IMG/VR virus record: IMGVR_UViG_3300029787_000044
Coordinates: 1-57,922 of that record
From: a virus
Lineage: Duplodnaviria; Caudoviricetes
Direction: 5' to 3' (one strand)
Length of the DNA: 57,922 bases
Part shown: piece by piece, positions 10,593 through 51,250 of the stretch
Layout: each line of letters begins with the position of its first letter
Numbering within the stretch: position 1 is the first letter of the stretch
Notes under the pieces: model-generated
Databases searched by the model: none
Told to the model about the DNA's origin: nothing
Seen by the model: the letters and a program-made list of their open reading frames with translations, nothing else
Program-made: the position numbers and the translations under genes

Positions 10593-11501
10593 ATGGCAAT
10601 TAATAGAGCCCAACTAGTTAAAGAACTAGTACCAGGACTCCATGCTCTCTTTGGATTAGAGTATGAGAGATATAATAATGAACACGAAGACATCTTCGAT
10701 ACCGAGAGTTCTGAAAGAGCGTTCGAGGAAGAAGTAATGTTAAGTGGGTTTGGTGAAGCACCGACTAAAGGAGAAGGAGCAGCGGTTATTTATGACACAG
10801 CTCAAGAATCTTGGACATCGCGTTTTACTCATGAAACAATAGCATTAGCGTTTGCGTTAACTGAAGAAGCTATCGAAGATAATCTTTACGATACACTTTC
10901 TTCAAGATACACAAGAGCTTTAGCTAGATCTATGCAACAAACTAAACAAGTGAAGGCTGCTAACGTATTAAACAATGCGTTTAGTTCTTCATATGTTGGT
11001 GGAGATGGAAAAGAGCTTTGCGCTACAGACCATCCAACGGTTGCTAATGTTGACTTGAGAAACGAGCTTTCTACAGCAGCAGACTTAAATGAAACTTCAT
11101 TAGAGCAAGCGTTAATTGATATCGCTGACTTTAAAGATGAAAGAAATTTAAAAGTCAATGCACAAGCAAAGAAATTAATTATTCCACCTGCTTTGCAATT
11201 TGTAGCTGATAGATTACTGGAAACTCCAGGAAGAGTCGGTACTTCAGATAATGACATCAACGCAATTAGAAACATGGGAATGATTTCTGAAGGCTATGTT
11301 GTAAATCATTATCTAACAGATACTGATGCTTTCTTCATCAAAACTGACGTACCTAACGGAATGAAACATTTTGTTAGAACGCCTGTATCAACTAGTATGG
11401 AAGGTGACTTCGAAACTGGTAATGTAAGATATAAGGCTAGAGAACGTTATAGCTTTGGTTGGAGTGATTGGAGAGGAATCTTCGGTTCACCAGGAGCGTA
11501 A
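10593..11501 (+). CDS. Major capsid protein (HK97 fold)
   Basis: MAINRAQLVKELVPGL...SERAFEEEV...LIIPPAL...GDFETGNVRYKARERYSFGWSDWRGIFGSPGA; followed by a strong terminator. Confidence 0.92.
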   Translation: MAINRAQLVKELVPGLHALFGLEYERYNNEHEDIFDTESSERAFEEEVMLSGFGEAPTKGEGAAVIYDTAQESWTSRFTHETIALAFALTEEAIEDNLYDTLSSRYTRALARSMQQTKQVKAANVLNNAFSSSYVGGDGKELCATDHPTVANVDLRNELSTAADLNETSLEQALIDIADFKDERNLKVNAQAKKLIIPPALQFVADRLLETPGRVGTSDNDINAIRNMGMISEGYVVNHYLTDTDAFFIKTDVPNGMKHFVRTPVSTSMEGDFETGNVRYKARERYSFGWSDWRGIFGSPGA

Positions 11502-18700: not shown

Positions 18701-21165
18701 CATTAAAAGCTCTGACTACAGGTACTCTTAATACAGCTATTGGTGGTCAATCTATGGAAAGTGCTACAACAGGTGGTAGTAATACTGCTATGGGCTATGG
18801 TGCTTTAAATGCTAATACAACTGCTTCAAATAACACCGCAGTTGGCAAATCTGCTTTAGGAGCAAACACCACAGGTGCTGATAATACAGCTATAGGTTTT
18901 CAAGCTTTAGATGCTAATACTACTGGTAATTACAACACTGCAGTTGGTTTAAATGCTTTATCAAGTAATACAACCGCAGATACTAATACAGCAGTTGGAT
19001 ACGCTTCTCAGTTTTTAAATACTACAGGTGCTGGAAATACCTCACAAGGTTATGTAGCACTTTATGCAAACACTACAGGTGCAGGTAATTCAGCATTTGG
19101 TAGAGGTTCTTTAGAAGCAAATACTGAAGGTGATTATAATACTGCTGTAGGAAGAACAGCTTTAGGAGCAAACACTACAGGTATTAATAATGTAGCATTA
19201 GGTACTTTTGCTTTAGACGCAAACACTACAGCTAATTCAAACATAGCAGTTGGTTATAACTCTTTGAGCAATAACACCACTGGAAATACTAATACAGCAG
19301 TGGGTACAAGTGCTTTATTTACTAATACAGTAGGTGATAGAAACGTAGCTATTGGACACCAAACTTTGTACTATACTATACCTGATTCAAATGTTGATAT
19401 GTACAATGTCGCTGTTGGTTATGAAGCTTTGTTACAAAACACTACAGGTACTAATAATGTTGCCATAGGTGGTTTAGCATTAGATGCAAACACTACCGCA
19501 AGTAATAATACCGCAGTTGGTAAATCTGCTTTAGGAGCAAATACTACAGGTACTAGAAATAACGCCTTTGGTTCTTTATCTTTAGACGCTACAACAACAG
19601 GTTCTTATAATAATGCTTTTGGTTATAGCTCTTTAAGTTCAAACACAACAGGTGCTGAAAATATTGCAGTTGGTGATAATTCTTTGTTAGACAATACAAC
19701 TGGCGACAAAAACACAGCATTAGGTACAAGTTCTTTAGCAAACAACACAACAGCAGACAACAACACAGCCGTAGGTTATTCAGCTTTAAATGCAAACACA
19801 ACTGGTGCTAATAACACTGGTATTGGTGGAAGTGCTTTAGCAGCAAACACCACCGCACATAATAATGTGGCTATGGGATATTTTGCAATGGCATTAAATA
19901 CCACAGGAACAGACAATGTAGCAATGGGTTTTGCTGCCCTAGATGCAAATACAACTGGTGATGACAATACTGCTATTGGAGATAATGCTCTTGGTGCTAA
20001 TACCACAGCAGATAGCAACACAGCAGTTGGCAGCTCTGCTTTAGGAACTAACACAACAGGTGCTGAAAATGTAGCTATGGGAACTTTTTGTTTAGAAAAT
20101 AATACGACAGGTTCTCAAAATACTGCTATTGGGCATAGAGCTTTAGATGCTAATACTACAGCAGCAAGCAACACCGCAGTAGGTTTTGCATGTTTAGGAG
20201 CAAATACTACCGCAACTAGTAACACCGCAGTTGGCAAATCTGCTTTAGGAGCAACCACAGTAGCAGGCAGTAATACAGCTGTTGGTTATAACGCACTAGA
20301 TACTAATACTACTGGAGCAAGTAATACGGCTGTTGGTGCTGAAGCTTTAGATGCTAACACTACAGCTTCTTATAATGTTGCAGTTGGTGAAGTTGCAATG
20401 CGTCTTACTACAACTGGTGCTGCTAATGTAGCGGTTGGTAGAGCTTCTTTTTATACTAATACTACAGGTAGTGACAATACAGCTGTTGGTAATGCGGCTT
20501 TATATAGTGCTACCACAGCATCAAATAATACAGCAGTTGGACATGATGCAGGATTATCAGTAACCACAGGTGCTAATAATACATTAATCGGTTCTTTAGC
20601 AGGCGATGCTATTACAGAAGGCTCAAATAACATTATGATTGGTTATCAAGCAGAAGTTGGTGCTGCTACAGGGAGCAATCAAATATGTATTGGTATTGAT
20701 ATAAATGCTGGTGGAGATAATAATTTTAGTTTTGGTAAAGCCAGTAATGTTGTTACCAACGATTTTGATGCTGATGCAGATTGGTCACGAAGTTCTGATG
20801 TTAGATTAAAAAGAAATATTGAAGATACAACATTAGGTTTAAGTTTTATTAATGATTTAAGACCTATAAAATTTCAATGGAAGCCATCTAATGAAGTCCC
20901 AGAAATAATGACTTCAGAATACAATAAAGAAAATCAAAAGAATTTAGATTATATTAATCATGGTTTTATAGCACAAGAAGTTAAAGAAGCTATAGATAAT
21001 CATGGAGATACAACTTTTGGTGGTTGGCATATTGATGAAAACGACAATGAAACTCAAAGAATTAAAAAGAATATGTTTATTATGCCTTTAATTAAGGCAG
21101 TACAAGAACTGTCTACGCAAGTAGATGAATTAAAACAAGAGTTAAAAACTCTAAAAGGAGAATAA
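15772..21165 (+). CDS. Long tail fibre with 14-aa repeats and C-terminal intramolecular chaperone (peptidase S74-like)
   Basis: N-terminal GTWGNTTNTNLELI anchor; dozens of NTT(G/A)xxN(T/V)A(V/I)GxxAL repeats; C-terminal SSDVRLKRNI...GFIAQEV...LIKAVQEL autocleaving chaperone motif. Confidence 0.92.
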   Translation: MASTYVNNLRLNEMGTGDASGTWGNTTNTNLELIGEALGYGTRAIANASTDNITIADGASDADRSMYLKLTGGGQACTVTLLPNTVSKVWIIENATSYTLTFTAGSGANVAIAAGQVKAIATDGGGSGGVVYDLFTDLELTGNITASTSVTAPLIEASTSVQTPLIEFSDGDDAITIADGGGTTFAAAATFSSSITAASLDISGDIDVDGTTNLDVVDIDGAVDMASTLGVTGVVTANAGVVVDTMTLDAATLTATGDFTIDAAGDIVLDGDGADILFKDAGSLIGFLSMASSNLNLTNNASDGDIIFTGNDGGSSVTALTLDMSAAGAATFNSTINGAGILSNAANFGEGLLISQDAGTGTLSSANRNTGFGYEVFDDLTSGDDNTAFGQQALAALTTAGHNTAVGSNALEANTTGAQNVAVGSLALDSATTADNNVAVGYGSLGVNTTGAQNIAIGSFSLDANTTASNNVAIGYASLGSNTTASDNTAVGKFSLTANTTGTQNTVIGASAGVALTTGGNNVAVGFEALKNEDAHGLNTAIGTQALFTQNAGADAYNVGVGYQAGAAITTGTNNTIIGGLAGDATTTGERNTAVGTSSLTTNTTGSGNSAFGYKSLENSTTASNNTAFGQDTLRATTTGAENTAVGLDTLDANTTGTSNVAMGNDALGGNTTGSYNIAIGRVALTSNTTADNNIAIGYNTLNANSTGALNVGIGNYVLDANTTASNNVGIGYNSLSANTTGAFNTAVGSVTLDANTTASNNTGIGYNALGANTTGAANTALGYNALDDNTTASNNVAIGSQALTANTTGTANTAVGTLALLANTTANDNTAMGTSSLAANTTGTRNTALGRSALTANTTGDYNTAVGTFALDSTTTADGNTAVGYGAMDVNTTGANNVAIGMQALDANTTASNNTAVGYNSLTANTTGNLNIAVGNESLATNTVGDRNVAIGYQALTTFNPASNVDAYNTAMGHVALKALTTGTLNTAIGGQSMESATTGGSNTAMGYGALNANTTASNNTAVGKSALGANTTGADNTAIGFQALDANTTGNYNTAVGLNALSSNTTADTNTAVGYASQFLNTTGAGNTSQGYVALYANTTGAGNSAFGRGSLEANTEGDYNTAVGRTALGANTTGINNVALGTFALDANTTANSNIAVGYNSLSNNTTGNTNTAVGTSALFTNTVGDRNVAIGHQTLYYTIPDSNVDMYNVAVGYEALLQNTTGTNNVAIGGLALDANTTASNNTAVGKSALGANTTGTRNNAFGSLSLDATTTGSYNNAFGYSSLSSNTTGAENIAVGDNSLLDNTTGDKNTALGTSSLANNTTADNNTAVGYSALNANTTGANNTGIGGSALAANTTAHNNVAMGYFAMALNTTGTDNVAMGFAALDANTTGDDNTAIGDNALGANTTADSNTAVGSSALGTNTTGAENVAMGTFCLENNTTGSQNTAIGHRALDANTTAASNTAVGFACLGANTTATSNTAVGKSALGATTVAGSNTAVGYNALDTNTTGASNTAVGAEALDANTTASYNVAVGEVAMRLTTTGAANVAVGRASFYTNTTGSDNTAVGNAALYSATTASNNTAVGHDAGLSVTTGANNTLIGSLAGDAITEGSNNIMIGYQAEVGAATGSNQICIGIDINAGGDNNFSFGKASNVVTNDFDADADWSRSSDVRLKRNIEDTTLGLSFINDLRPIKFQWKPSNEVPEIMTSEYNKENQKNLDYINHGFIAQEVKEAIDNHGDTTFGGWHIDENDNETQRIKKNMFIMPLIKAVQELSTQVDELKQELKTLKGE

Positions 21166-22112: not shown

Positions 22113-24005
22113 GTGCCTTTACAAAAATTTGTTTTTAGACCAGGAATAAACAAAGAATCGACAGCTTACGCTAATGAAGGAGGTTGGTTTGATTCTAATT
22201 TAGTGCGTTTTCGTAAAGGTTTGCCTGAAAAAATAGGGGGTTGGACTAAAGCTACTGGAACTACTTTTAAATCTACAGGACGAGCAATGCATGCTTGGAC
22301 GGATAACGATGGAACTAGATTAATCGGTTTAGGTACAACTTGGAAATACTATGCGGTAGAAGGACAAGTTTATTACGATGTAACACCTATTCGAGCAACG
22401 ACAACTGACGGAATTACTTTTGCTGCTACTGACGGCAGTTCAACTATAACAGCTACTGACAGTAATCATCAAGTTGTTCTTAATGACTTTGTTACAATAA
22501 GCGGAGCAGTTAGTTTAGGCGGGCTTGTTACGGCTGCTGTATTAAATCAAGAATATCAAGTAACTTCAGTACCCACCGCAAATACTTTTACTTTTACAGC
22601 TAAAGATACTAGTGATAACACAGTTACTGCTAATTCTAGCGATTCAGGTAATGGTGGGTCTAGTGCAGATGCTGCATATCAAATAAATGTGGGTTTAGAT
22701 GTTTACGTGCCGTCCACAGGGTGGGGTTCTGATTATTGGGGTTCAGGAACTTGGGGCAGTGTTTCTGCTTTAGGAGCTAATAATCAATTACGTATTTGGT
22801 CACATGATAACTTCGGTGAAGATTTAATTATGAATGTTCGCGGAGCAGGTGTTTATTATCACGACGTAGGGGGAGGAGTTTCTAATAGAGCAGTGGCTCT
22901 TTCTGCACTTACTGATTCTAATTTAGCTCCTACCGTAGCCTTACAAGTTTTAGTTTCTGATATAGATAGACATGTTATTTGTTTTGGAGCAGATCCAATA
23001 AGTGCTTCAGGAGTGACTAGAACAAACGTAGTTGATCCGATGTTTATAGCTTGGAGTGATCAAGAAAATGCAGAACAATGGGAACCTTTACCGACTAACA
23101 CGGCAGGATCTTTTAGACTTTCAGCAGGATCTTCAATTATAGGAGCTCTTAGAGCAAGACAAGAAACTTTAGTTTGGACAGATACTTCATTATATTCAAT
23201 GTCTTTTGTAGGACAACCATTTACTTTTGCAGTTAATTTAGTTAATGAAGGAGTTGGGTTAGTTGGACCTAATGCTATGATAAACACCCCTAAAGGAGTG
23301 TTTTGGATGGATAAAAAAGGTTTTTATTCTTACACAGGTCAAATACAACAAATGCCTTGCACCGTTGATGAGTATGTTTTTACTGATATAAACCAAACAC
23401 AAAGTTATCAAATATTTGCTTTTCTAAATAAAGCTTTCGATGAGGTAGGTTGGTTTTATTGTTCAGGAACAAACAACGTTATTGATAAATATGTTACTTA
23501 TAATTACGAAGAAAATGTTTGGATGATTGGAGAACTTTCTAGAACTTGTTGGTTAGATGAAGGAGTTTTTCCTGATCCTAAAGCTACCTCATCTACAAAC
23601 GATGTAGGTTATTTATATAATCATGAAACAGGAGACGATAACGATGGCACCGCGATGACTAATGTGTTTATAGAGTCTAGTGACTTTGATCTTGATCCTG
23701 CAGGGGAAGATTTCCAGTCCATAAGTAGAATAATCCCCGACATTAAATTCACAGGAGACGCTAGTTTAGGCAGTGAGGGTCAAAAAGTAGACATAGTTTT
23801 AAAAAGAAGAAATTTTCCTGGAGAGGAATTAACTACCGCAGTAACAAGTTCTTGTACTTCAGTTACTACTAAAATAGATACAAGAGTAAGGGGAAGACAA
23901 GCAGTTTTACGTATTCAATCTAACGATGATAACACCAACGTTATAGGTACATCGTTCAGAATAGGAGCTATGCGTATGGATGTAAAGCCTGATGGAAAAA
24001 GATAA
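22113..24005 (+). CDS. Tail hub/nozzle protein (P22 gp10-like / tail tubular B-like)
   Basis: 630 aa beta-propeller-like; PGINKEST...VRFRKG-x-PEKIGGW start; precedes ejection-type genes. Confidence 0.7.
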   Translation: MPLQKFVFRPGINKESTAYANEGGWFDSNLVRFRKGLPEKIGGWTKATGTTFKSTGRAMHAWTDNDGTRLIGLGTTWKYYAVEGQVYYDVTPIRATTTDGITFAATDGSSTITATDSNHQVVLNDFVTISGAVSLGGLVTAAVLNQEYQVTSVPTANTFTFTAKDTSDNTVTANSSDSGNGGSSADAAYQINVGLDVYVPSTGWGSDYWGSGTWGSVSALGANNQLRIWSHDNFGEDLIMNVRGAGVYYHDVGGGVSNRAVALSALTDSNLAPTVALQVLVSDIDRHVICFGADPISASGVTRTNVVDPMFIAWSDQENAEQWEPLPTNTAGSFRLSAGSSIIGALRARQETLVWTDTSLYSMSFVGQPFTFAVNLVNEGVGLVGPNAMINTPKGVFWMDKKGFYSYTGQIQQMPCTVDEYVFTDINQTQSYQIFAFLNKAFDEVGWFYCSGTNNVIDKYVTYNYEENVWMIGELSRTCWLDEGVFPDPKATSSTNDVGYLYNHETGDDNDGTAMTNVFIESSDFDLDPAGEDFQSISRIIPDIKFTGDASLGSEGQKVDIVLKRRNFPGEELTTAVTSSCTSVTTKIDTRVRGRQAVLRIQSNDDNTNVIGTSFRIGAMRMDVKPDGKR

Positions 24006-24346
24006 TGGCTAAACTATTAGAAACGAAACTGCCTTACGCTGTTTCGCCTGTTACTTCAGTTACTGCAGCTTTGTTGTTTAATCGTTTAGTAAGGATTTTA
24101 GAATTAAGTCTAGGTCGGGTAGATATTGGAGCGACAATAAATGTTAATGAAACACAAAGAAACATAAACCAATTCAATAAAGGCGATGTTATTTGGAATT
24201 TATCCACACAACAGCTACAATTATGGACAGGAGAACAATGGGTAGATATCTATCAAGGTTCCGAAAAAGGAGTAGAGGGGGTTACAGCATTAGGAAATGT
24301 CTCAATTTCTACAGGTGGTTCAACAACAATAATATTAGGAGAGTAA
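24005..24346 (+). CDS. Hypothetical tail-module protein
   Basis: Coupled to the previous gene; GDVIWN...LQLWTGEQW motif. Confidence 0.7.
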   Translation: MAKLLETKLPYAVSPVTSVTAALLFNRLVRILELSLGRVDIGATINVNETQRNINQFNKGDVIWNLSTQQLQLWTGEQWVDIYQGSEKGVEGVTALGNVSISTGGSTTIILGE

Positions 24347-24348
24347 GT

Positions 24349-24795
24349 ATGAACATAGATAAACTTAGAGAAGAATTAACATTTGACGAAGGATGTATTA
24401 ATAAAATATATCTTGATCATTTAGATTACCCTACTTTTGGAATAGGTCATTTAGTATTAAAATCTGATCCAGAACATGGGAAAGACATAGGAACTCCTGT
24501 TTCAGAAAAAAGAATAAAAGAATGTTTCGAAAAAGACATACAAAATGTTATAAATGATTTAGATAGAAATATGACATGGTGGAAAGATTTACCAGAAGAT
24601 TTACAAAGAGTTATGGCTAATATGTGTTTTAACTTAGGTATAACTAGGTTATTAAAATTTAAAAAGTTTTTAAGTGCGATGGAAGAACATAAATGGGATA
24701 AAGCCGCAGTTGAAATGTTAGATAGTCGTTGGGCTATACAAGTAGGTCCAAGAGCTATAAGATTGAAAGATAGAGTATTAAAACAAGGAGACTAA
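24349..24795 (+). CDS. T4-type lysozyme (GH24 endolysin)
   Basis: DEG...YLDHLDYPTFGIGHL catalytic E-D-T motif; NMCFNLG; AAVEMLDSRWA-x-QV-x2-RA. RBS AGGAG supports the ATG at 24349. Confidence 0.92.
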   Translation: MNIDKLREELTFDEGCINKIYLDHLDYPTFGIGHLVLKSDPEHGKDIGTPVSEKRIKECFEKDIQNVINDLDRNMTWWKDLPEDLQRVMANMCFNLGITRLLKFKKFLSAMEEHKWDKAAVEMLDSRWAIQVGPRAIRLKDRVLKQGD

Positions 24796-24796
24796 A

Positions 24797-24892
24797 ATGC
24801 CACACGGACCAGGATCATACGGAACTACAAGAGGCAGACCGCCTAAAAAGAAGATGAAGAAGATAAAGAAAAAGAAAAAGACAAAGAAATAA
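24797..24892 (+). CDS. Tiny Lys-rich basic peptide (not in ORF track)
   Basis: MPHGPGSYGTTRGRPPKKKMKKIKKKKKTKK*; RBS AAGGAG, coupled to the next ORF. Confidence 0.7.
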   Translation: MPHGPGSYGTTRGRPPKKKMKKIKKKKKTKK

Positions 24893-25080
24893 TGCCAGCA
24901 AAAAAGAAAACACATAAAACTAAAGACGGCAGAACCGCTAGAAAAGGTCTTTATTACTATATAAATAAAAAGAAAAAAGAAGGCAGAAAGCCTCGTAAAA
25001 AAGGAGCTAAAGGTGCCCCTACAAGGGAGGCTTTTATACGTTCTGCTAAAACAGCAAAAAAACCTAAAAAGAAAAAATAA
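24892..25080 (+). CDS. Small highly basic protein
   Basis: K/R-rich; KGLYYYINKKKK...KGAKGAPT...SAKTAKK. Confidence 0.75.
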   Translation: MPAKKKTHKTKDGRTARKGLYYYINKKKKEGRKPRKKGAKGAPTREAFIRSAKTAKKPKKKK

Positions 25081-25373
25081 TGCCTCGTAAAAAAGAAAAG
25101 TCTATAAGACGTACTACAGGTAAAGGCGGTAATTATCGCAAAACTAAATCTGGCGCAGGCATGACTAAGAAAGGCGTTAAGGCTTATAGAAGAAAAAATC
25201 CAGGAAGTAAATTAAAAACAGCAGTTACGGGAAAAGTTAAAAAAGGTAGTAAGGCTGCAAAAAGGAGAAAATCTTACTGTGCTAGAAGTGCAGGACAAAT
25301 GAAGAAATTTCCTAAAGCAGCTAAAAACCCTAACTCAAGATTACGTCAAGCACGTAAAAGGTGGAAATGTTAA
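25080..25373 (+). CDS. Small highly basic protein
   Basis: GAGMTKKGVKAYRRKNPGSKLKTAVTG...RRKSYCARS...ARKRWKC. Confidence 0.8.
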   Translation: MPRKKEKSIRRTTGKGGNYRKTKSGAGMTKKGVKAYRRKNPGSKLKTAVTGKVKKGSKAAKRRKSYCARSAGQMKKFPKAAKNPNSRLRQARKRWKC

Positions 25374-25757
25374 ATGGCTAAAAAAGCACCAGATGCGTTT
25401 GTATACAACGCTACATTAGAAAGAATAGTAGATGGAGACACTTTTGATTGTTGTCTTGATTTAGGTTTTGATGTAAAACTACATAAACAACGAGTAAGGC
25501 TTTCTGGAATAGATACCCCAGAATCAAGAACACGTGACTTAGAAGAAAAGAAACTTGGTCTTGCTGCAAAGGCTCGATTAAAAGAACTTTGTGAAGGTAA
25601 ACTTAAAATAAAATCTTTAGGCAAAGGCAAGTACGGTCGTATTCTCGGTATTCCGTACACAAAAGATGGCAAAGATATTTGTCAAATATTAATTGATGAA
25701 GGTCACGCAGTTGAATATGATGGCGGGACTAAAACTAAAATTTGGGGTGCATACTAA
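25374..25757 (+). CDS. Thermonuclease (staphylococcal nuclease-like)
   Basis: RIVDGDT, VRLSGIDTPE and GKYGRILG SNase motifs; no signal peptide. Confidence 0.9.
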   Translation: MAKKAPDAFVYNATLERIVDGDTFDCCLDLGFDVKLHKQRVRLSGIDTPESRTRDLEEKKLGLAAKARLKELCEGKLKIKSLGKGKYGRILGIPYTKDGKDICQILIDEGHAVEYDGGTKTKIWGAY

Positions 25758-26149
25758 TGAATGATGGAAGCGGAAGATTTGGCGGCGATATGGATAGAAA
25801 TGAAGTAGAGATGGATCTTAATAAGTTCATGGCTATGATTCAAGAAATTGGCGAACTTAAAGATAAAATAAGAACTTTAGAAGATACAACTAATGTAAAT
25901 CCTTGGCAAAAAGTAATTCATTTAGCACAAGCTGTAGATTCTTGGAGATTATTTCCTAGAGCTTTTCTTAGTATTTATATGTATCTTTTGTATTACACAA
26001 CATTTTGGTTTATGGCATTAGAGTCACCTACTTTTGAACAGTCAGGATTAATATCAATAGTAGTAGGAGCAGGTGCTGCTTGGTTTGGTTTATACGCAGG
26101 CACTTCTGGATCGAGTAAGTCTTTTAAAGGTGAGGCTAATAAAGAATAG
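25757..26149 (+). CDS. Membrane protein with two TM helices (possible holin)
   Basis: DSWRLFPR followed by two hydrophobic segments; TAATG coupling supports the start at 25757. Confidence 0.65.
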   Translation: MNDGSGRFGGDMDRNEVEMDLNKFMAMIQEIGELKDKIRTLEDTTNVNPWQKVIHLAQAVDSWRLFPRAFLSIYMYLLYYTTFWFMALESPTFEQSGLISIVVGAGAAWFGLYAGTSGSSKSFKGEANKE

Positions 26150-26150
26150 T

Positions 26151-26348
26151 ATGGCTATAGATGGTAAAAAGATCTATTTAACTGAATTTAAAGTAGGCAC
26201 TGTAGTTTATGAGGGACCTTATATTTATGCTAATTCGTTTGAGGAAGCTGATATAGAAGCAGTAGATTTCGGAGTAGTTATAGTAGGAGAAGCCGCTATA
26301 GTTAAAAAAGATAATAACGAAGAAGAATGGAACAGAGTTTTACATTAA
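26151..26348 (+). CDS. Small hypothetical protein
   Basis: MAIDGKKIYLTEF...YEGPYIYANSFEEA; fills the gap between neighbours. Confidence 0.6.
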   Translation: MAIDGKKIYLTEFKVGTVVYEGPYIYANSFEEADIEAVDFGVVIVGEAAIVKKDNNEEEWNRVLH

Positions 26349-26623
26349 TAGCTGAACTTGGTTTACCTGTGGCAGGTGGACTTATTATGGCTTACTTCAT
26401 CTTTTTAATCATGAAACAGCTTATGGGGCAATTAGTTAATGATATAAAAACCGTTGAAGGCATTACTAAAATGTTAATTACTAGAGCCTCTATAATGAAC
26501 AACGATATTATACGAATAGATACCAGTGTTTCAAGTGCTTTAAATTTGAAACCTGATTTAAATAGGATAGCTAGAGCAGAAAATTTTGTAGAAGATGGAA
26601 AGATAGACGCTAGGAGAGATTAA
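26327..26623 (+). CDS. Small single-TM protein A of the curli-like operon
   Basis: LIAELGLPVAGGLIMAYFIF TM followed by a helix with NNDIIRID; paralog of the next gene. Confidence 0.75.
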   Translation: MEQSFTLIAELGLPVAGGLIMAYFIFLIMKQLMGQLVNDIKTVEGITKMLITRASIMNNDIIRIDTSVSSALNLKPDLNRIARAENFVEDGKIDARRD

Positions 26624-26892
26624 TGGACATAGTCCAACTAGTTTCCGAGTTTGGATTTCCTGTAGTAATGGTAGTTGGGTTAGGTTATTTCGTTTATTTT
26701 GTTTGGCAAACGGTAACTAAAGTCATAGATCCTGCTGTAGGTGAAATGAAGAAAACTATAATACGCCTAACCGATCAATTACGTTTATTAGACCAAGACA
26801 TGATAAGACTACAACAAAAAGTAAACACAGTATTAGAACTTAAAGAACAGGAGGCATTAGATAATGACAACAAAAAAGAAAAAACTAAATAA
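26623..26892 (+). CDS. Small single-TM protein B of the curli-like operon
   Basis: LVSEFGFPVVMVVGLGYFVYF TM followed by a coiled coil with DQDMIRLQ. Confidence 0.75.
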   Translation: MDIVQLVSEFGFPVVMVVGLGYFVYFVWQTVTKVIDPAVGEMKKTIIRLTDQLRLLDQDMIRLQQKVNTVLELKEQEALDNDNKKEKTK

Positions 26893-27364
26893 TTCTCAAA
26901 AATCACCTACGGTTAGTATAGCCGTAACTATTGGAGTTATTTTATTAGTAGGAATTTTTGGACAAGATCTGTGGGCTGATCAAATAACGCATAAATTTAA
27001 ATCACCCTCTTTTAGTGGCATTAATACATCTAGTCATTATCTTACGATTGAAAACCAAGAGTTTAATAGACGACAAACAATTAAAGATGAACTTAAAGCT
27101 GCTATAGAAGAAGCAGAAAGAGATAAAGAAAATTCTACAGTACAAAGATTTATTCGTAACTTTGAGTCAAGAGTCTACGCTGAATTATCAAGACAACTTA
27201 TAGCTAACTTATTTGGAGAAACTCCACAAGATAGCGGAACTATAACCTTAGAAGGTAATACGATAGAATATAGTTCAGATGGAACTTATTTAACCCTTAA
27301 AATAACTGAGGCTGATGGAACAATCACTCATATTACGATTCCTATTGGTAGCTTCACTTTCTAG
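26864..27364 (+). CDS. csgF: Curli assembly protein CsgF homologue
   Basis: Signal peptide followed by ITHKFKSPSFSG...LTIENQE (cf. CsgF F-x-NP-x-FGG...L...AQ); L-x2-QL-x3-LFG; adjacent to csgG. Confidence 0.8.
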   Translation: MTTKKKKLNNSQKSPTVSIAVTIGVILLVGIFGQDLWADQITHKFKSPSFSGINTSSHYLTIENQEFNRRQTIKDELKAAIEEAERDKENSTVQRFIRNFESRVYAELSRQLIANLFGETPQDSGTITLEGNTIEYSSDGTYLTLKITEADGTITHITIPIGSFTF

Positions 27365-28187
27365 TTGTTCTATCTTTGACCAGTTTGAAGATACTTATGA
27401 ACAAAGATTTAAAGCTCACGATATAGTTAAAATAGAAGAACTACATTCTAAAGAATTAGCTTTAGTAAATAAACCTATGATTCAGCCCATAGTTGCTGTA
27501 TATCCTACATCATTTACAGATCAAACAGGACAAAGAAAAAGTAATAGTGAGTTTGCTTTATTTTCTACAGCAGTCACACAAGCACCCCATACTTTATTAA
27601 TTAGAGCACTTAAACACGCAAGTAATGGTGAATTTTTTAGAGTTGTAGAAAGAATTGGTTTAGATAATTTAACTAAAGAACGTCAGCTTATAAGATCAGC
27701 TAGAGAGCAATTTGCCACAGATGAGGAAAAAAAGAAACAGCTTGCTCCTTTGTTATTTGCAGGAGTGTTGCTTGAAGGTGCAGTTATAAGCTATGATAGT
27801 AACTTAACCACTGGTGGCATCGGTGCACGGTATCTCGGTATAGGTACTAGTATTCAATACAGAGAGGATAACATTACAGTAAGTTTGAGGATGGTATCTG
27901 TAGCAACTGGTGAAATACTTATAGAAGTATTAAGCCAAAAAACCATATTCAGTTATGGTAAGTCAGAAGACATTTTCAGATTCATTGAAATGGGAACCGA
28001 ACTTGTAGAAGTCGAGTTAGGAAACTCGCGTAACGAGTCTACGACGATAGCCCTAATGAAAGCTATCGAAGGGGCAGTTTTAGAACTTATTACTATCGGT
28101 TACGATAGAGGATTTTGGAAACATGAAGAACTTAAAATTAATGAGCCTGATTGTGATGCTAAGTGCATTGCCAACATTCGCGGCTGA
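27315..28187 (+). CDS. csgG: Curli secretion channel CsgG homologue (lipoprotein)
   Basis: Lipobox LSSC; VAVY...F-x-DQTGQRK, STAVTQ, F-x-VVER-x-GL-x-NL-x-KERQ-x-IR, EG-x3-YDSN-x2-TGG-x-GARYLGIG, V-x-LR-x-VSV-x-TGEIL. Confidence 0.95.
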   Translation: MEQSLILRFLLVASLSSCSIFDQFEDTYEQRFKAHDIVKIEELHSKELALVNKPMIQPIVAVYPTSFTDQTGQRKSNSEFALFSTAVTQAPHTLLIRALKHASNGEFFRVVERIGLDNLTKERQLIRSAREQFATDEEKKKQLAPLLFAGVLLEGAVISYDSNLTTGGIGARYLGIGTSIQYREDNITVSLRMVSVATGEILIEVLSQKTIFSYGKSEDIFRFIEMGTELVEVELGNSRNESTTIALMKAIEGAVLELITIGYDRGFWKHEELKINEPDCDAKCIANIRG

Positions 28188-28854
28188 TAACGAAATATAT
28201 TTAGACCAAAGCGGTACTACACTTAATTTAGATATAGAACAACTAGGTATCTCTAACATTATAGGTGGCTTGCAATCTACAGCAGGCAGTCTTACAGCTT
28301 TTGATATTGATGGTACAAGTATGACTATTGATATTAATATGATTGGAAACACTAACAAGTTTCTTGGTGATATATGGGCAGATAGCTTTACTGGTTTTTA
28401 TGAATTCACTGGTAATAGCAATACTTTTACAATACAAGTTGACCCAAGTAACACCTTTGGTGCTGACAGTTCTAATCAAAATATAGCTGTTACTGGATCA
28501 AGTAATACTTTTACTTTAAATCAAGGTACTACTGCATTAGCAGGAACTTTAGATTTAGATTGGATTATTCAAGGTTCTAACAACACAGTTGTATCTAATA
28601 TTAATATTGATGGTGCAACTAACTATATGGATATAGATGGTTCTGATAATACAGTTAATTATACTGGAACAGGAGTAACAGCTTCAGCAGGCGGATATTT
28701 TTGGCTAGATCACACAGGTGGACAAAGAACATTTAATATTCAACAACTGAGTACACAAGATAATGACTGGCTTAAAGTTATATCGGTTGGCGGGAACGCT
28801 GCTTCTACTGTTTGTATTATTCAAAACGACCAAGGTACAAGCACAAGCTGCTGA
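28123..28854 (+). CDS. Secreted curlin-like beta-solenoid protein
   Basis: Signal peptide, then ADNEIYLDQSG...IEQLGISN and repeated G-x2-N-x3-(I/L)-x-Q units rich in N/Q/G/S/T. Confidence 0.7.
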   Translation: MKNLKLMSLIVMLSALPTFAADNEIYLDQSGTTLNLDIEQLGISNIIGGLQSTAGSLTAFDIDGTSMTIDINMIGNTNKFLGDIWADSFTGFYEFTGNSNTFTIQVDPSNTFGADSSNQNIAVTGSSNTFTLNQGTTALAGTLDLDWIIQGSNNTVVSNINIDGATNYMDIDGSDNTVNYTGTGVTASAGGYFWLDHTGGQRTFNIQQLSTQDNDWLKVISVGGNAASTVCIIQNDQGTSTSC

Positions 28855-29881
28855 TATTGGGGATATATCTGAACTAAATGGTTCAGCGCAAATAGTAAGA
28901 GATGAGCCTTTAGACGCTACTTTAAAGTTTGCTATTCAAAGCAATGATGAAGCTATTACTACTAACGGTAGAATGGCTATAACTTTTCTTGATGATTCTA
29001 CAGTTAAACTAACTGAACACTCACAACTTTTAATAGATGAATATATCTATGATCCCGATCCTTCTAAAGCTAAAATGGCACTTACGTTTGGACTCGGTAC
29101 AGCTCGATTTATTACGGGTAATTTAAACAAAATAGATAAACAAAATATATCTTTAAAAACACCTACAGCAAACATAGCGATTCGTGGGACAGATTTCACG
29201 GCTACCGTTGACGAGCTAGGACGTTCACTTATTATTTTACTCCCCGATTCTTTTGGGTTGTCTAGCGGGGAAATAGAAGTGGTTACTGCTATGGGTAGCG
29301 TATTACTTAATAAACCTTATCAAGCCACAACAGTAAGTGTTTTTGAATCTAAGCCCAGTAAACCTGTTGTATTAGATTTAACTTTAGACATTATAGACAA
29401 CATGTTAATTGTTACGCCTCCTAAAGAAGAAATCACTCAAACAGAAGAAGTAGCAAGTAATACAAAAGCTAACATATTAGATTTTAATGATCTTGATATA
29501 GACTATTTAGATGAAGACTTTTTTGCTGAAGATGAATTAGAGTTTACAGAATTAGATATAAATTATTTAGATGTAAATTTTCTTGAAGATCTATTAAATA
29601 TATTAGACTCATTAGCGATTTCGGAAGATGAAGACGTTTTAGCAGATGCAGGCAGCATAACTCTTAGCGGAACTAAAATAGGACAAGACCCAGACACACA
29701 AATAACCACCTTAGTTACAGGTAATGTAATTAGTCTTAGACGAAAAGTAAATGATTCAGTTAGATTAGACTTAGACAGTGGTGGAGCATACACAGTTATT
29801 ATTATTCAAGATGGAGTTAGTAATGTAGTAAAAATAAATGGTGGTGGCGATTCTAATATAACCATAACGCAAAGTGAATAA
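28763..29881 (+). CDS. FecR-domain periplasmic protein with acidic linker
   Basis: Signal peptide; D-x-I-x-T-x2-G...ITFLDDSTVKL-x-EHS-x-L...G-x-ARF-x-TG...KTPTA-x-IAIRGTDF FecR signature. Confidence 0.85.
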   Translation: MTGLKLYRLAGTLLLLFVLFKTTKVQAQAADIGDISELNGSAQIVRDEPLDATLKFAIQSNDEAITTNGRMAITFLDDSTVKLTEHSQLLIDEYIYDPDPSKAKMALTFGLGTARFITGNLNKIDKQNISLKTPTANIAIRGTDFTATVDELGRSLIILLPDSFGLSSGEIEVVTAMGSVLLNKPYQATTVSVFESKPSKPVVLDLTLDIIDNMLIVTPPKEEITQTEEVASNTKANILDFNDLDIDYLDEDFFAEDELEFTELDINYLDVNFLEDLLNILDSLAISEDEDVLADAGSITLSGTKIGQDPDTQITTLVTGNVISLRRKVNDSVRLDLDSGGAYTVIIIQDGVSNVVKINGGGDSNITITQSE

Positions 29882-31610
29882 ACTTTTATTACCTATATTA
29901 ATATTACTTAGTTTACCTTTGGTGTTTCAAAGCACGCCAACAGAAATACTTAAATTAAAAACTTTTGATAGTTTAATTAAACAACAAGAGCCCAGTGGTA
30001 ATTTTGTAATACTTAACATTACAGAAGAAGATATAGAACGTGAAGGTGGATATCCTTTACCTAGAACAAGATTAGCTGATATCCAAATAGAATTATTAAG
30101 TAAAGGTGCTATAGGTGTTGGTTGGGTAATTAGTTTTCCGCAAGCGGATAGGTTAGATGGAGATAAAGATTTTGCTAGGTCACTGGGCTACGCTCCTGCA
30201 GTTCTTGCAATGTTTGAAGACGGTAAAGGCATTTATCCTGCTAGTCCAGGAACAGTAGTTTTAGGTGAAAACACAGGAGGTATTAACAGTTCGGGAGTGA
30301 AAGCTAATCACACATCATATGATGATGTTCTGCAGGGATTAGCTATAGCTCCCACCGATGTAGATTTACTTGTAAGAAGAATGCCTTTGTTAGTAAAAAC
30401 TCCTAATAACGAATGGATACCTAGTTTTGGTACACAAATATATAAAGCTTTGTTTGGTATAAAAACATATATTATCAAAACTAACGAAAACGGTATACAG
30501 GAAATAGCGATACGCGGAATACCGCCTGTTAAAACAGATAGTTTAGGTCGTAAATGGATTTCATGGGTTAATACACAACAAACAGATTTACAAGAAATGG
30601 AAGTAAACGGTAAATTTGTTATAGTAGGTGTAACAGCTAATGGGGTTATGCCACAGATAGCCACGCCTATTGGACTTGTTGAGCCGCATAAAATACAAAC
30701 GGCTCTTGCAGAATCTATCCTAATACAAGATAGTCCTTACATACCTGATTATTCTTTAGCTTTAGAACTTCTTATATATTTAGTTTCTGTAAGCCTCGTA
30801 TGGGCTTTTATAAGCTATTTAGGGATAACTTGGGGTATTTCTCTAGCTTTAATTACGATGGCTTTAACGGGCTTCTACGGTTATTACACAATAACTACAG
30901 GAATCCTTATAGATATAACTTGGTCGTTAGTCTCACAATTTATAACAGGAGCTATAGCTTTTTATTTAAGGTTTAGAGAACAATATAAATTAAGACAACA
31001 GATTAAAAAACAGTTTGAACATTACTTAGATCCTAGACAAGTAAAACGTTTACAAAAAGACCCTGATTTATTAAAACTAGGTGGAGAAAAAAGAAGATGT
31101 ACTTTCTTGTTCACAGACGTTAGAGGATTTACAGCTCTTTCTGAAACGTTACCTCCTGAAGAAGTTACTGAAATAATGAATAAAGCATTAACTGTTCAAG
31201 TTGAGTGTGTACAAAAAAGAGGAGGCATGGTAGATAAATTCATTGGTGACGCAATGATGGCTATCTTTAATGCACCTATGGATTTAGAACAACACGAAGA
31301 ACTAGCGGTTCAATGCGCTAAAGAAATACAAGAAAATATAAATAAAGCAAACATTGGAATAGCTATTGGGGTTGGGGTTAATACTGGAGAAGCTGTGATA
31401 GGCAACATGGGCAGTGACACTAGATTCGATTATTCGGCTATTGGGGATGCGGTTAATACGGCGGCTAGGCTAGAGTCTGCTACTAAAGAAGCAGGTGTAA
31501 ACATACTTATTGGAGAAGAAACTAAGAAATATTGTGGTATTTCCTTAAAACGATTAAAACCTATAAAAGTAAAAGGTAAAGAAAAACCTTTAAAAATATA
31601 CACGTTTTGA
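29874..31610 (+). CDS. CHASE2-domain class III adenylate cyclase
   Basis: N-terminal TM, CHASE2-like periplasmic region (G-x-YP-x-PR, D-x-D-x2-VRR-x-PL, GK-x-V-x-VG), 3 TMs, then FTDVRGFT, DKFIGDAMM, GNMGS-x2-RFDYSAIGDAVN-x-AARLE; K and D specificity residues indicate ATP. Confidence 0.93.
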   Translation: MNKLLLPILILLSLPLVFQSTPTEILKLKTFDSLIKQQEPSGNFVILNITEEDIEREGGYPLPRTRLADIQIELLSKGAIGVGWVISFPQADRLDGDKDFARSLGYAPAVLAMFEDGKGIYPASPGTVVLGENTGGINSSGVKANHTSYDDVLQGLAIAPTDVDLLVRRMPLLVKTPNNEWIPSFGTQIYKALFGIKTYIIKTNENGIQEIAIRGIPPVKTDSLGRKWISWVNTQQTDLQEMEVNGKFVIVGVTANGVMPQIATPIGLVEPHKIQTALAESILIQDSPYIPDYSLALELLIYLVSVSLVWAFISYLGITWGISLALITMALTGFYGYYTITTGILIDITWSLVSQFITGAIAFYLRFREQYKLRQQIKKQFEHYLDPRQVKRLQKDPDLLKLGGEKRRCTFLFTDVRGFTALSETLPPEEVTEIMNKALTVQVECVQKRGGMVDKFIGDAMMAIFNAPMDLEQHEELAVQCAKEIQENINKANIGIAIGVGVNTGEAVIGNMGSDTRFDYSAIGDAVNTAARLESATKEAGVNILIGEETKKYCGISLKRLKPIKVKGKEKPLKIYTF

Positions 31611-31620
31611 TATATAATCA
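31608..31620 (+). promoter_or_regulatory. Putative late promoter/operator motif (copy 3)
   Basis: TGATATATAATCA overlapping the cyclase stop codon, ahead of the internal-virion gene block. Confidence 0.6.
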
Positions 31621-31693
31621 ATATATCAGCTTGTGCTGCAGCTTACGGGGTGGGCTTTAACTCGCAAATACGTTTAAATACGCTGGAGAAAAG

Positions 31694-31801
31694 ATGACTG
31701 GAGTTGATAAAAAAGCATATCTAAAGAAGAAGGGACGCCGTTCCGACTTCGTCGTATACTCATCTAAAGGCAAGAAGACTAAAACTAGGAGTAGGTTCTA
31801 A
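31694..31801 (+). CDS. Tiny basic peptide (not in ORF track)
   Basis: MTGVDKKAYLKKKGRRSDFVVYSSKGKKTKTRSRF*; RBS GGAG; TAATG coupling. Confidence 0.6.
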   Translation: MTGVDKKAYLKKKGRRSDFVVYSSKGKKTKTRSRF

Positions 31802-32697
31802 TGCCTTGGAATCTTCTTATCCCTGCATTAGCTTCTTTAGTTGGTATGAAATACCAATCCAATATAGCTAACGATCCTAAAGGTCCTATAGGCAGCGGAA
31901 CATCTCCAAGCATGAATCCAGGAGACGCAAGTGATTTTGCTCCTGTACAAGGAAGCGACGTTAAAGAGTTTGCAGATTTTTCTTACGAAGATGTAACTAA
32001 ACCTAACACAGAAGGTAGTCCAGAAGAAGAACAATTATTACAAATGTTAATGGAAGCAGGAATAAATCCTGAAGATTTCGGTATTATGGGACTAGCTTTC
32101 GGCGGTCCTTTAAAAAGAGCAGGCGGTGGAGGTATCGGTAGTCTTCTTTCGATGTTAGATATTGAACTTCCTGAAATAATAGACCCCCAAGAATTTATTA
32201 CAGGTCCTTTAGAAACTTTAGGTATCAACGCAAAAGACAAAATAAACACAAAAATGCAAGGTCTTGAAGCTTATGCAGAAGCTAATCCTGAAATGTTTAA
32301 AGCATTAATAGATGCAGGACTTATTACAGGTAAAAATTTAATGAATAAACCAAAAGAACAAAAAGGTTCTATAGTAAGTACAAACACTCTTCCAGGAAAC
32401 GCGGCTCGAAGAAGAAGTCAGTTTGATAAAATAACTCCTTTAAGTGGTTCTGAAATTACTTTTGCTAAAGAAGGTTCTGCTTTAAATAGAAAAATGTTTA
32501 TGGATAATCAAATGCCTAACGGCGGTGCTATGCACGGTCCTGGCGGTCCTAAGGATGATTTAATACCAGTAATGGCAAGTAACGGAGAGTACATGCTCTC
32601 AAAAGCAGCAGTAGACGCAGCAGGTGACGGTAGTCATGCTATGGGGATTGCTAGATTAGAAAAATTTAATGATATGGGGAATAGACGATATGGCTAA
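31801..32697 (+). CDS. Putative internal virion protein
   Basis: C-terminal GPGGPKDDLIPVMASNGEYMLS-x2-AV motif, as seen in phage tape-measure/ejection-associated proteins. Confidence 0.6.
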   Translation: MPWNLLIPALASLVGMKYQSNIANDPKGPIGSGTSPSMNPGDASDFAPVQGSDVKEFADFSYEDVTKPNTEGSPEEEQLLQMLMEAGINPEDFGIMGLAFGGPLKRAGGGGIGSLLSMLDIELPEIIDPQEFITGPLETLGINAKDKINTKMQGLEAYAEANPEMFKALIDAGLITGKNLMNKPKEQKGSIVSTNTLPGNAARRRSQFDKITPLSGSEITFAKEGSALNRKMFMDNQMPNGGAMHGPGGPKDDLIPVMASNGEYMLSKAAVDAAGDGSHAMGIARLEKFNDMGNRRYG

Positions 32698-51151: not shown

Positions 51152-51250
51152 ATGTTAGAGTATTTAAGTAAATTAATAGACAGATTATTAGAGTTATCGT
51201 TAAAAAGAACTGCTAATAAAATGTCAAGGAGAAAGAATGAAGGTAATTAA
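51152..51250 (+). CDS. Possible tiny protein (not in ORF track)
   Basis: MLEYLSKLIDRLLELSLKRTANKMSRRKNEGN* fills the gap before the TS homologue; weak RBS. Confidence 0.35.
   Translation: MLEYLSKLIDRLLELSLKRTANKMSRRKNEGN

Follow-up and report, generated by a model that had tools for sequence, protein, structure and literature searches.

A type VIII secretion system (T8SS)/curli module is known from pelagiphages. Wittmers et al. 2022 (PMC9599517) reported it from nine podovirus genomes of the HTVC023P type as well as from myophages, with genes in the order "HK" (one or two), CsgF, CsgG, CsgA/B and FecR, after which a second CsgA/B gene and an adenylate cyclase often come. An alphaproteobacterial origin and a transfer from myoviruses to podoviruses were deduced; module genes were found at all 65 GOV2.0 stations and in metatranscriptomes, and aggregation, superinfection defence, import or recombination were put forward as functions. 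The term "CHASE2" is absent from the main text of that paper. The present analysis concerns a seven-gene cassette of this kind in a marine phage; it occupies positions 26327-31610 of IMG/VR virus record IMGVR_UViG_3300029787_000044; the window is the whole record of 57,922 bases, with an estimated completeness of 94%. Judged from its sequence, the cassette is a copy of the known pelagiphage T8SS/curli module: gene set, gene order and HTVC023P-type podovirus backbone all match. An earlier reading of the window (the first-pass annotation) knew of no functional description of the complete system in a podovirus-like phage, but novelty cannot be claimed at this level, since the cassette, FecR and cyclase included, had already been described genomically (PMC9599517). 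New with respect to the published description are the findings that the two small membrane (tm) proteins are not kinases, that FecR and CHASE2 form a bacterial gene pair, that a cellular copy of the cassette exists, and that the two ends of the FecR protein differ in their co-variation. Literature searches returned no experimental study of the cassette, and no paper joining CHASE2 to phage cyclases.

In tblastn searches, the phage cyclase was matched in the Pelagibacter myophage HTVC008M (KC465899) and in four Melnitz methylophages. HTVC008M and Methylophilales phage Melnitz (MZ577097) have the same gene set and order, at 31-50% identity, except that FecR and the cyclase are separated there by an additional curlin-repeat gene, whereas the 57.9-kb record has a single curlin gene. 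For Melnitz, Buchholz et al. 2022 (PMC9004378) proposed a role in the timing of lysis, predicted a positively charged channel in the CsgGF complex, and saw no clumping of infected cells in their culture conditions. The CsgG and CsgF homologs are common to the phage cassette and the curli system of Escherichia coli, and so, judged by its protein family, is a probable curlin-repeat cargo. In contrast to the latter, the phage has no CsgE, CsgC or CsgD and only one curlin gene rather than an A/B pair; its additions are FecR, the CHASE2 cyclase and the two tm genes.

Bacterial gene clusters that combine FecR with CHASE2 have also been reported. In Campylobacterota, a CHASE2 cyclase is encoded together with a FecR-domain protein, a tetratricopeptide repeat (TPR) protein and a phosphodiesterase (PMC9239204); in Burkholderiales (the Burkholderia "BiofilmReg" cluster) and Pseudomonas aeruginosa PAO1, a LysM-FecR protein accompanies a CHASE2 histidine kinase (PMC5192318, where the ligands of CHASE2 receptors are described as unknown). 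As in the phage, a secreted FecR-domain protein is thus encoded beside a CHASE2 membrane sensor. These clusters differ from the cassette in having a TPR protein, some also a phosphodiesterase, and no CsgG, CsgF or curlin; moreover, the likeness of their FecR proteins to that of the phage is confined to the FecR domain, the C-terminal part being absent from them.

A further comparison is offered by Sinorhizobium meliloti, in which the outer-membrane barrel NsrA is required for the response of the inner-membrane cyclases CyaK and CyaD1/D2 to an external, protease-sensitive signal, with cyclic AMP (cAMP) as output (PMC7529298). The literature searched names CyaK, CyaD1 and CyaD2 as CHASE2 types, and S. 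meliloti SMc02177 has a FecR domain, yet is not required for signal perception. We know of no FecR tether in the NsrA pathway. By analogy, NsrA and its CHASE2 cyclases are a cellular precedent, established by experiment, for trans-envelope cAMP signalling, with the qualification that the outer-membrane component of the NsrA-CyaK/CyaD1/CyaD2-Clr pathway is unrelated to phage CsgG, and that the pathway is cellular, not viral.

The cassette consists of seven open reading frames (ORFs), all on the + strand and each overlapping the next head to tail, which together take up 5,284 of 57,922 bases, or 9% of the phage genome. It begins with tmA (26327-26623; phrog_18771 at 7e-22), a single-pass membrane protein of 98 amino acids (aa) with a helical C-terminal part, and its 89-aa single-pass paralog tmB (26623-26892; phrog_18771 at 4e-26). 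These are followed by a CsgF homolog with a signal peptide (26864-27364; Pfam CsgF at 3e-14, phrog_35372 at 1.9e-43), the outer-membrane lipoprotein and pore protein CsgG (27315-28187; Pfam CsgG at 2.8e-47), and a secreted, acidic, curlin-like beta-solenoid (28123-28854), recognised from Curlin_rpt matches within its family and from an AlphaFold2 model. The last two genes encode a secreted FecR-domain protein (28763-29881; Pfam FecR at 4.5e-10) and an inner-membrane protein that combines a CHASE2 receptor with a class III adenylate cyclase (29874-31610; CHASE2 at 3e-23, Guanylate_cyc at 1.5e-20). The ORF list, Pfam and PHROG agree with the first-pass annotation on the position and order of the seven genes and, with qualifications for the curlin-like protein and one residue of the cyclase (below), on their identity. 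The possibility that the proteins are structural parts of the virion was considered and rejected; none has a structural PHROG match, and they carry Sec-type or lipoprotein export signals or membrane segments instead.

The reading preferred here, to which a probability of about 0.45 is assigned, is that the cassette specifies one envelope-spanning device of pore, tether and cyclase, as opposed to a producer of fibres with loosely attached regulators, and that cAMP synthesis is governed by the state of its pore or fibre. In the outer membrane, CsgG and CsgF would make up the pore that serves the acidic curlin-like solenoid. The FecR protein would be the coupler; at the inner membrane, its N-terminal FecR fold would partner the periplasmic CHASE2 domain, while its linker, acidic, disordered and conserved in length, would reach across the periplasm, and its C-terminal beta domain would partner the end formed by curlin, CsgF and CsgG. 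Cargo flux, fibre load or surface contact could in this way be converted into cAMP synthesis in the infected cell. FecR is read as coupler because its N-domain co-varies with CHASE2, and its C-domain with curlin, CsgF and CsgG. Gene content, predicted localisation signals, intact cyclase residues, co-inheritance, the bacterial FecR-CHASE2 pair and the co-variation of domains are observed, whereas we infer which parts touch, which way the signal runs, what the cue is and what reads the cAMP. A trans-envelope sensor had been put forward in the first-pass annotation, and, its novelty apart, the proposal is plausible in view of the co-inherited unit, the bacterial FecR-CHASE2 pair and the NsrA precedent. 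The cues named there (superinfecting phage, cell contact, nutrient), an outside-in flow and a part in lysis timing are candidates at most, and no CRP target was found (host receptors were not examined). If a pore-coupled cAMP device of this kind exists, phages of SAR11 and OM43 would provide their streamlined hosts with a new envelope-spanning signalling organ during infection, and a compact, transferable model for the activation of CHASE2 receptors would become available. Cultured phage-host systems exist, namely HTVC008M on HTCC1062 and Melnitz on OM43 H5P1.

The integrity of the cassette was followed in two scans of IMG/VR. A CsgG-seeded scan gave 170 relatives, of which 80 loci were kept (73-100% identity); a second scan, seeded with FecR and with the HTVC008M sequence placed first, yielded at least 596 relatives, 80 of which were retained (43-100% identity). 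Loci were scored with hidden Markov models built from the cassette families, and only those with enough flanking DNA were counted. FecR lies 3' of CsgG in 66/66 CsgG-seeded and 64/64 FecR-seeded loci, and is preceded by CsgF, CsgG and curlin in 48/48 and 71/71, respectively. The cyclase is present in 26/26 CsgG-seeded and 37/39 FecR-seeded loci (the misses being L220 and L231), and the tm pair in 17/17 and 30/30. The placement of the tm pair varies: in 16 of the FecR-seeded loci it precedes CsgF, in 12 it lies past the cyclase and on the other strand, and in two (L201, L210) it adjoins a relocated cyclase. A second curlin gene is absent from 66/66 podovirus-type loci and present in 45/56 myovirus-type loci. 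As the viral loci are mutually related, these counts express persistence through rearrangement, not independent origins. They support the view that cyclase and secretion parts belong to a single unit. The co-occurrence of FecR and cyclase with csgFG in other genomes, for which the first-pass annotation had suggested a neighbourhood survey, is near-invariable in the viral loci and is seen again in two contigs of Caulobacteraceae metagenome-assembled genomes (MAGs).

The FecR protein is predicted to have three parts. AlphaFold2, run on a 48-row alignment, is confident of a FecR fold at residues 33-205, within a domain set at about 30-210, and of a small C-terminal beta domain at 300-370, set at 298-372; the acidic linker between them (about 215-297) has a predicted local distance difference test score (pLDDT) <50 and is predicted to be disordered. 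In 48/48 FecR relatives, this linker comprises 75-88 aa and bears a net charge of -7 to -24. The N-terminal part aligns with the C-terminal cell-surface signalling domain (CCSSD) of PupR (6ovk) at Z 14.9 and a root-mean-square deviation (rmsd) of 2.7 over 137 residues (Foldseek E 5e-4), and residues 29-123 with a giant-adhesin anchoring domain (5ix9) at Z 7.0 and rmsd 2.1 over 72 residues. A likeness of the C-terminal domain to 5ix9 had been considered and was dropped, given the residues that the match covers. Nor is the C-domain claimed as a curlin repeat, the C-terminal match between the FecR and curlin family profiles being too weak (probability 8%, E 0.0042).

The FecR fold is shared with the FecA-FecR-FecI system, as the PupR match illustrates, but the architecture is different. 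In the phage protein, the fold follows directly upon a signal-peptide-like helix (residues 3-22), and FecR is the only domain matched; when examined as a possible anti-sigma factor, the protein showed neither an N-terminal cytoplasmic anti-sigma domain nor a transmembrane anchor. Its proposed output partner would be a cyclase, not a sigma factor. A complex of CHASE2 (residues 23-296) and FecR (30-372) predicted from separate alignments scored 0.00; it was run without controls and counts neither way.

The split between the two ends of FecR emerges from pairwise-distance matrices calculated per domain for 42 dereplicated podovirus-type and 43 myovirus-type loci. The clades were handled separately because a mirror-tree over both (39 loci) gave r of 0.7-0.98 throughout, dominated by the deep podovirus/myovirus split. 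Among podovirus-type loci, r between CHASE2 and the FecR N-domain is 0.65, as compared with 0.26 for the linker and 0.36 for the C-domain. The partial correlation of CHASE2 with the N-domain given the C-domain is 0.58, and the reverse partial is 0.00. Conversely, the C-domain correlates more closely with curlin (0.78), CsgF (0.73) and CsgG (0.64) than with its own N-domain (0.55). In 97-100% of bootstrap resamples the differences are positive. The pattern is not what gene order would lead one to expect: on the DNA, the N-domain is separated from CHASE2 by the linker and the C-domain. In myovirus-type loci, CHASE2 again follows the N-domain (0.53) rather than the C-domain (0.38), with partials of 0.41 and 0.04.

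The output component appears intact. Pfam places CHASE2 at residues 12-303, with hydrophobic segments at 4-22 and from 295, so that the domain stands, as in CHASE2 sensors, between an N-terminal membrane segment and a group of further ones, and solved class III cyclases align with the phage cyclase at E 2e-31 to 3e-26. The metal-binding Asp residues D415 and D459, the substrate-specifying Lys K455 and the transition-state residues N528 and R532 are all present; D415, K455, D459 and R532 are invariant in 49/49 relatives, and N528 is kept in 45/49. In the alignment with solved cyclases, entry 2w01, which we take to be a guanylate cyclase, has Glu where the phage enzyme has Lys. The second substrate-specifying residue is canonically Asp, or Thr in class IIIb. 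In the phage it is Ser521, which differs from the canonical Asp; of 49 family members, 33 have S at this position, 12 have T and 4 have D. By likeness to the Thr class, Ser521 would be compatible with specificity for ATP. Of the first-pass statement that catalytic and ATP-specificity residues are intact, the catalytic set and K455 therefore stand, whereas the second specificity position needs this qualification.

Several observations weigh against a pore-coupled cyclase. The binding of FecR to CHASE2 on one side and to curlin, CsgF or CsgG on the other, as well as the activity of the cyclase, are predictions from sequence, and the distance-matrix correlations are indirect evidence, which mosaic recombination or rate differences among related, recombining sequences can produce without contact. 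The C-domain/curlin half of the pattern is not significant in the 43 myovirus-type loci (difference 0.07, interval -0.06 to 0.16). Within the cyclase, the catalytic and CHASE2 domains show unrelated divergence (Mantel r -0.03, p 0.58, 42 loci), which suggests recombination inside the cyclase gene and hence a gene mosaic. The tm pair co-varies only weakly with all other cassette parts (r 0.2-0.3). No cyclic-nucleotide-binding (cNMP-binding) domain is encoded by the phage, and a literature search on Pelagibacter, cAMP and CRP gave nothing relevant. In canonical FecA-FecR, it is the FecR-type domain that contacts the outer-membrane partner, a polarity opposite to that proposed here. The lack of clumping with Melnitz counts against the fibre part of the proposal; it bears on fibre formation, not on signalling.

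The fibre part can be judged from the secretion genes themselves. The Pfam CsgF match spans model positions 14-132 of 132, with 53.8 bits against a cut-off of 25.8, and the motif [FYH]xFxxPxF occurs in 118/133 members of the CsgF family; a phmmer search against solved structures matched no CsgF chain. Phage CsgG has a match at E 5e-44, spanning residues 48-271, to the solved structure of its E. coli counterpart (4uv2). Its lipobox, read from the sequence, is L15-S16-S17-C18, and a lipobox-like motif is found in 90/102 members of its family. In the 4uv2 alignment, phage and E. coli CsgG differ before the conserved FSTAV motif, a region that is presumably the constriction loop. The CsgF, curlin-like and FecR proteins all have signal-peptide-like N-termini.

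The curlin-like protein is the least typical of these components. AlphaFold2 models it as an all-beta solenoid (pLDDT 86, predicted template modelling score (pTM) 0.81), and Curlin_rpt is matched at E<=1 in 34/47 members of its family (best 8e-08), but its own Curlin_rpt score, E 0.36, is below the cut-off. The first-pass label of a secreted curlin-like solenoid is thus upheld by model and family more than by the protein's own repeat score. In VIA-align, beta-helix structures align to the model at Z 12-17 (best Z 17.2, rmsd 2.6, 191 residues); the best matches are three-sided beta-helices and are generic. The CsgA structure 8c50 reaches Z 12.6, but at rmsd 8.9, and Foldseek returned nothing for the model at E<=0.001. 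The mature protein has a net charge of -20, within a family range of -12 to -38. As the first-pass annotation had noted, CsgE, CsgC and CsgD are missing: in the whole record there is no CsgE and no CsgC (the E. coli controls being positive for both), and no GerE/LuxR-type, CsgD-like domain. CsgH was not found in the record either, in a search without positive control.

These components are the basis of the published view, in which the T8SS comes first and makes curli-like fibres on a host that has none, while FecR and the cyclase merely regulate T8SS expression. The fibres would lead to aggregation ("sibling capture"), a superinfection shield or recombination. CsgG, CsgF and a protein of the curlin-repeat family are indeed all present, the last as a modelled beta-solenoid, and Wittmers et al. 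(PMC9599517) argue for fibres with the 65-station and metatranscriptome occurrence of the module. We nevertheless regard this explanation as somewhat unlikely. The record offers a single curlin gene and none of CsgE, CsgC and CsgD, and the curlin model resembles three-sided beta-helices better than CsgA. A transcriptional loop would need a cAMP-responsive regulator, and none is phage-encoded. Melnitz-infected cells did not clump in the conditions used (PMC9004378), and the split co-variation of the FecR halves is left unexplained.

A second question is whether the device is one unit at all, on which cellular relatives of FecR are informative. A scan of one genome per species gave 391 FecR relatives, of which 80 were kept; 10 of these 80 match FecR over its full length, and the other 70 loci match the FecR domain only. 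Not all full-length matches are likely to be cellular. Two of them, L085 and L086, come from opposite ends of a single 60.8-kb contig in a Neomarinimicrobiota MAG and jointly hold the whole cassette. They overlap in curlin and FecR, and the contig fits a circular phage genome binned into the MAG. The tm pair is also found in L086 and in L089-L092, which include contigs in Flavobacteriaceae, Legionellales and Pirellulales MAGs. Because the cassette spans contig ends and the tm pair is carried, these loci (L085/L086 and L089-L092) suggest phage contigs binned into MAGs.

The two Caulobacteraceae MAG contigs (L087, L088) are different in kind, with the order CsgF-CsgG-curlin-curlin-FecR-cyclase. 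In L087, the only one whose flanks were annotated, the block is surrounded by genes for methylmalonyl-CoA mutase, acyl-CoA dehydrogenase, an amidohydrolase and TetR. Because the block sits among ordinary metabolic genes, a cellular version of the cassette, without the tm pair, exists. Among 401 alphaproteobacterial genomes sampled, there was one full-length FecR match, in a genome already known to bear the Caulobacteraceae block; the FecR domain alone was found in 138/401, in open frames of 158 to 6913 aa.

In the FecR-domain-only bacterial loci, a CHASE2-cyclase match lies within 10 kb in 20/70 cases (16 of these are single ORFs of full length, one is divided over two ORFs, and the remaining three are cut or incomplete), and CsgG or CsgF in 0/70. 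FecR and CHASE2 cyclase are thus a widespread bacterial gene pair that occurs without CsgG/CsgF. A TPR protein of about 460-550 aa stands beside FecR in 9/15 of the FecR and CHASE2-cyclase loci examined (93/135 listed ORFs scanned); its C-terminal matches to Slam-like or outer-membrane-barrel families are weak and sub-threshold (E 4e-4 and 3.5e-3). In two deltaproteobacterial or myxococcal loci (L115:13777-15252 and L116:7419-9125), a mechanosensitive-channel protein with a cyclic-nucleotide-binding domain adjoins the CHASE2 cyclase and is a possible direct cAMP effector. FecR-type domains also occur near the start of long ORFs, of ~1,700 aa in L100 and ~2,400 aa in L104, and the FecR fold may be widely used as a periplasmic stopper.

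The bacterial pair lends itself to the explanation that the cassette holds two separate units travelling together, a T8SS that secretes curlin and an independent periplasmic sensor of a small molecule (e.g. an iron compound), made of FecR and the CHASE2 cyclase and not physically joined to the pore. That bacteria keep the pair without CsgG/CsgF, most often with a TPR protein as neighbour, speaks for this. However, the two parts are never apart in viral loci with enough flank, and they are together in the Caulobacteraceae contigs as well; furthermore, the C-terminal part of FecR, which is missing from the bacterial FecR-domain proteins, is the very part that co-varies with curlin, CsgF and CsgG. 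Independence of the two units is therefore judged unlikely, and a single pore-coupled device is preferred.

The coupling could also take a more extreme form, in which FecR is a threaded tether. Its folded N-domain would remain periplasmic and sit on CHASE2, its acidic linker of roughly 84 residues would run through the CsgG channel as a curlin substrate does, and its C-domain would lie outside, seeding or capping the curlin held by CsgF; a pull or contact by a cell, particle or superinfecting phage would be transmitted mechanically to the cyclase. Hints in this direction are that the C-domain co-varies with the two components whose E. coli models lie outside the cell, and that the linker has a conserved length and a charge like that of the acidic cargo. 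The positively charged channel predicted for Melnitz CsgGF (PMC9004378) is a further hint, as are the 5ix9 likeness of residues 29-123 and the position of FecR-type domains near the start of long alphaproteobacterial ORFs. We hold a threaded tether to be distinctly unlikely; if it did exist, the phage would equip a host lacking any such organ with a sensor of touch or contact whose output is cAMP.

The proposal made for Melnitz, that CsgG with or without CsgF is a gated pinholin- or secretin-like pore which triggers or times lysis, is very unlikely to apply. Buchholz et al. (PMC9004378) argue from gene order and modelling, and in the window a lysozyme-family gene (24193-24795) does lie 1.5 kb upstream of the cassette. 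However, CsgG cannot depolarise the inner membrane because it is an outer-membrane lipoprotein, and an endolysin and, at 1918-2650, two Rz-like spanin genes are encoded elsewhere in the phage. The cassettes of the myophages HTVC008M and Melnitz are not beside lysis genes, and curlin, FecR and the cyclase would go unexplained. Lastly, a CsgE-less pore might act as a channel that admits cofactors or iron compounds to the periplasm, with FecR reporting them, an idea reportedly also raised by Zaragoza-Solas et al. 2020. It was considered by Wittmers et al. (PMC9599517), too, and agrees with the lack of CsgE in the record, but is highly improbable, as the FecR protein has no anti-sigma part, general annotation (no dedicated search was run) showed no TonB-dependent transducer, and the invariable curlin gene has no place in it.

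Two small membrane proteins open the cassette. Each has one N-terminal hydrophobic segment, and tmA belongs to no Pfam family. The tmA protein is 41% identical to its HTVC008M and Melnitz orthologs, but only 18% to tmB of the same record; tmA and tmB are thus two orthologous groups older than the podovirus/myovirus split. The label of histidine kinase given in PMC9599517 is rejected, as there is no kinase domain and no conserved histidine. A search of six tm members found no kinase family even at E<=5, both proteins of the 57.9-kb record contain zero His, and 43/123 tmA and 63/81 tmB relatives are His-free. The only invariant columns in the family alignment are G, F, L and D. The Atlas clusters nearest to tmB are 100% viral; the nearest named cluster of the tm proteins is YvrJ at 0.87, merely a lead.

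The distance matrices of tmA and tmB agree at r 0.97, and the two always change together. The pair resembles a swappable allele; where CsgG identity is 73-100%, identity to the tm pair of the window extends from ~20% to 100%, many values lying around 25-47% and others in the range of 70-100%. Its correlation with the membrane region of the cyclase, r 0.26, gives no support for tm-cyclase contact. In the two Caulobacteraceae MAG genomes, which are possibly incomplete, the pair was not found. We read it as a phage-specific accessory pair, not as histidine kinases.

According to Pfam and PHROG annotation, the gene map of the 57.9-kb record is of podovirus type. A terminase (3750-5276), a portal (5303-7738) and a major head protein (10593-11501) are followed by a tailspike-like protein of 1797 aa (15772-21165), in which tailspike and virion-structural PHROG matches recur in 10-15 repeated stretches. 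A structural protein (22113-24005) is 32-39% identical to its counterparts in the Pelagibacter phages HTVC023P and HTVC027P and in two further phages, 023Pt_psg01 and DSL-LC04. Ejection-type proteins are encoded from 31801, and replication genes from 41438 onwards. In a scan of 24000-32500, 21 promoter-like sites were found against 29.8 expected, which is uninformative, and there was no terminator-like site in the gap 3' of the cyclase gene.

Directly upstream of the cassette, a 135-aa protein with hydrophobic stretches (25742-26149) matches phrog_10198 at 6.9e-21. In many podovirus-type relatives, a phrog_10198 protein likewise directly precedes tmA; it could be a holin or an eighth member of the cassette. 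Next to it is a staphylococcal-nuclease homolog without signal peptide (25374-25757; Pfam 6e-13), which flanks the cassette and in many relatives is found either just upstream or ~1 kb downstream of the cyclase. It is preceded by two adjoining small ORFs of 62 and 97 aa (24892-25373), both extremely rich in Lys and Arg. Elsewhere in the record, a thymidylate-synthase homolog (51237-52277; phrog_5131 at 2e-111) belongs to a type of gene that Wittmers et al. (PMC9599517) tie to partner genes for DNA hypermodification in HTVC023P-type phages.

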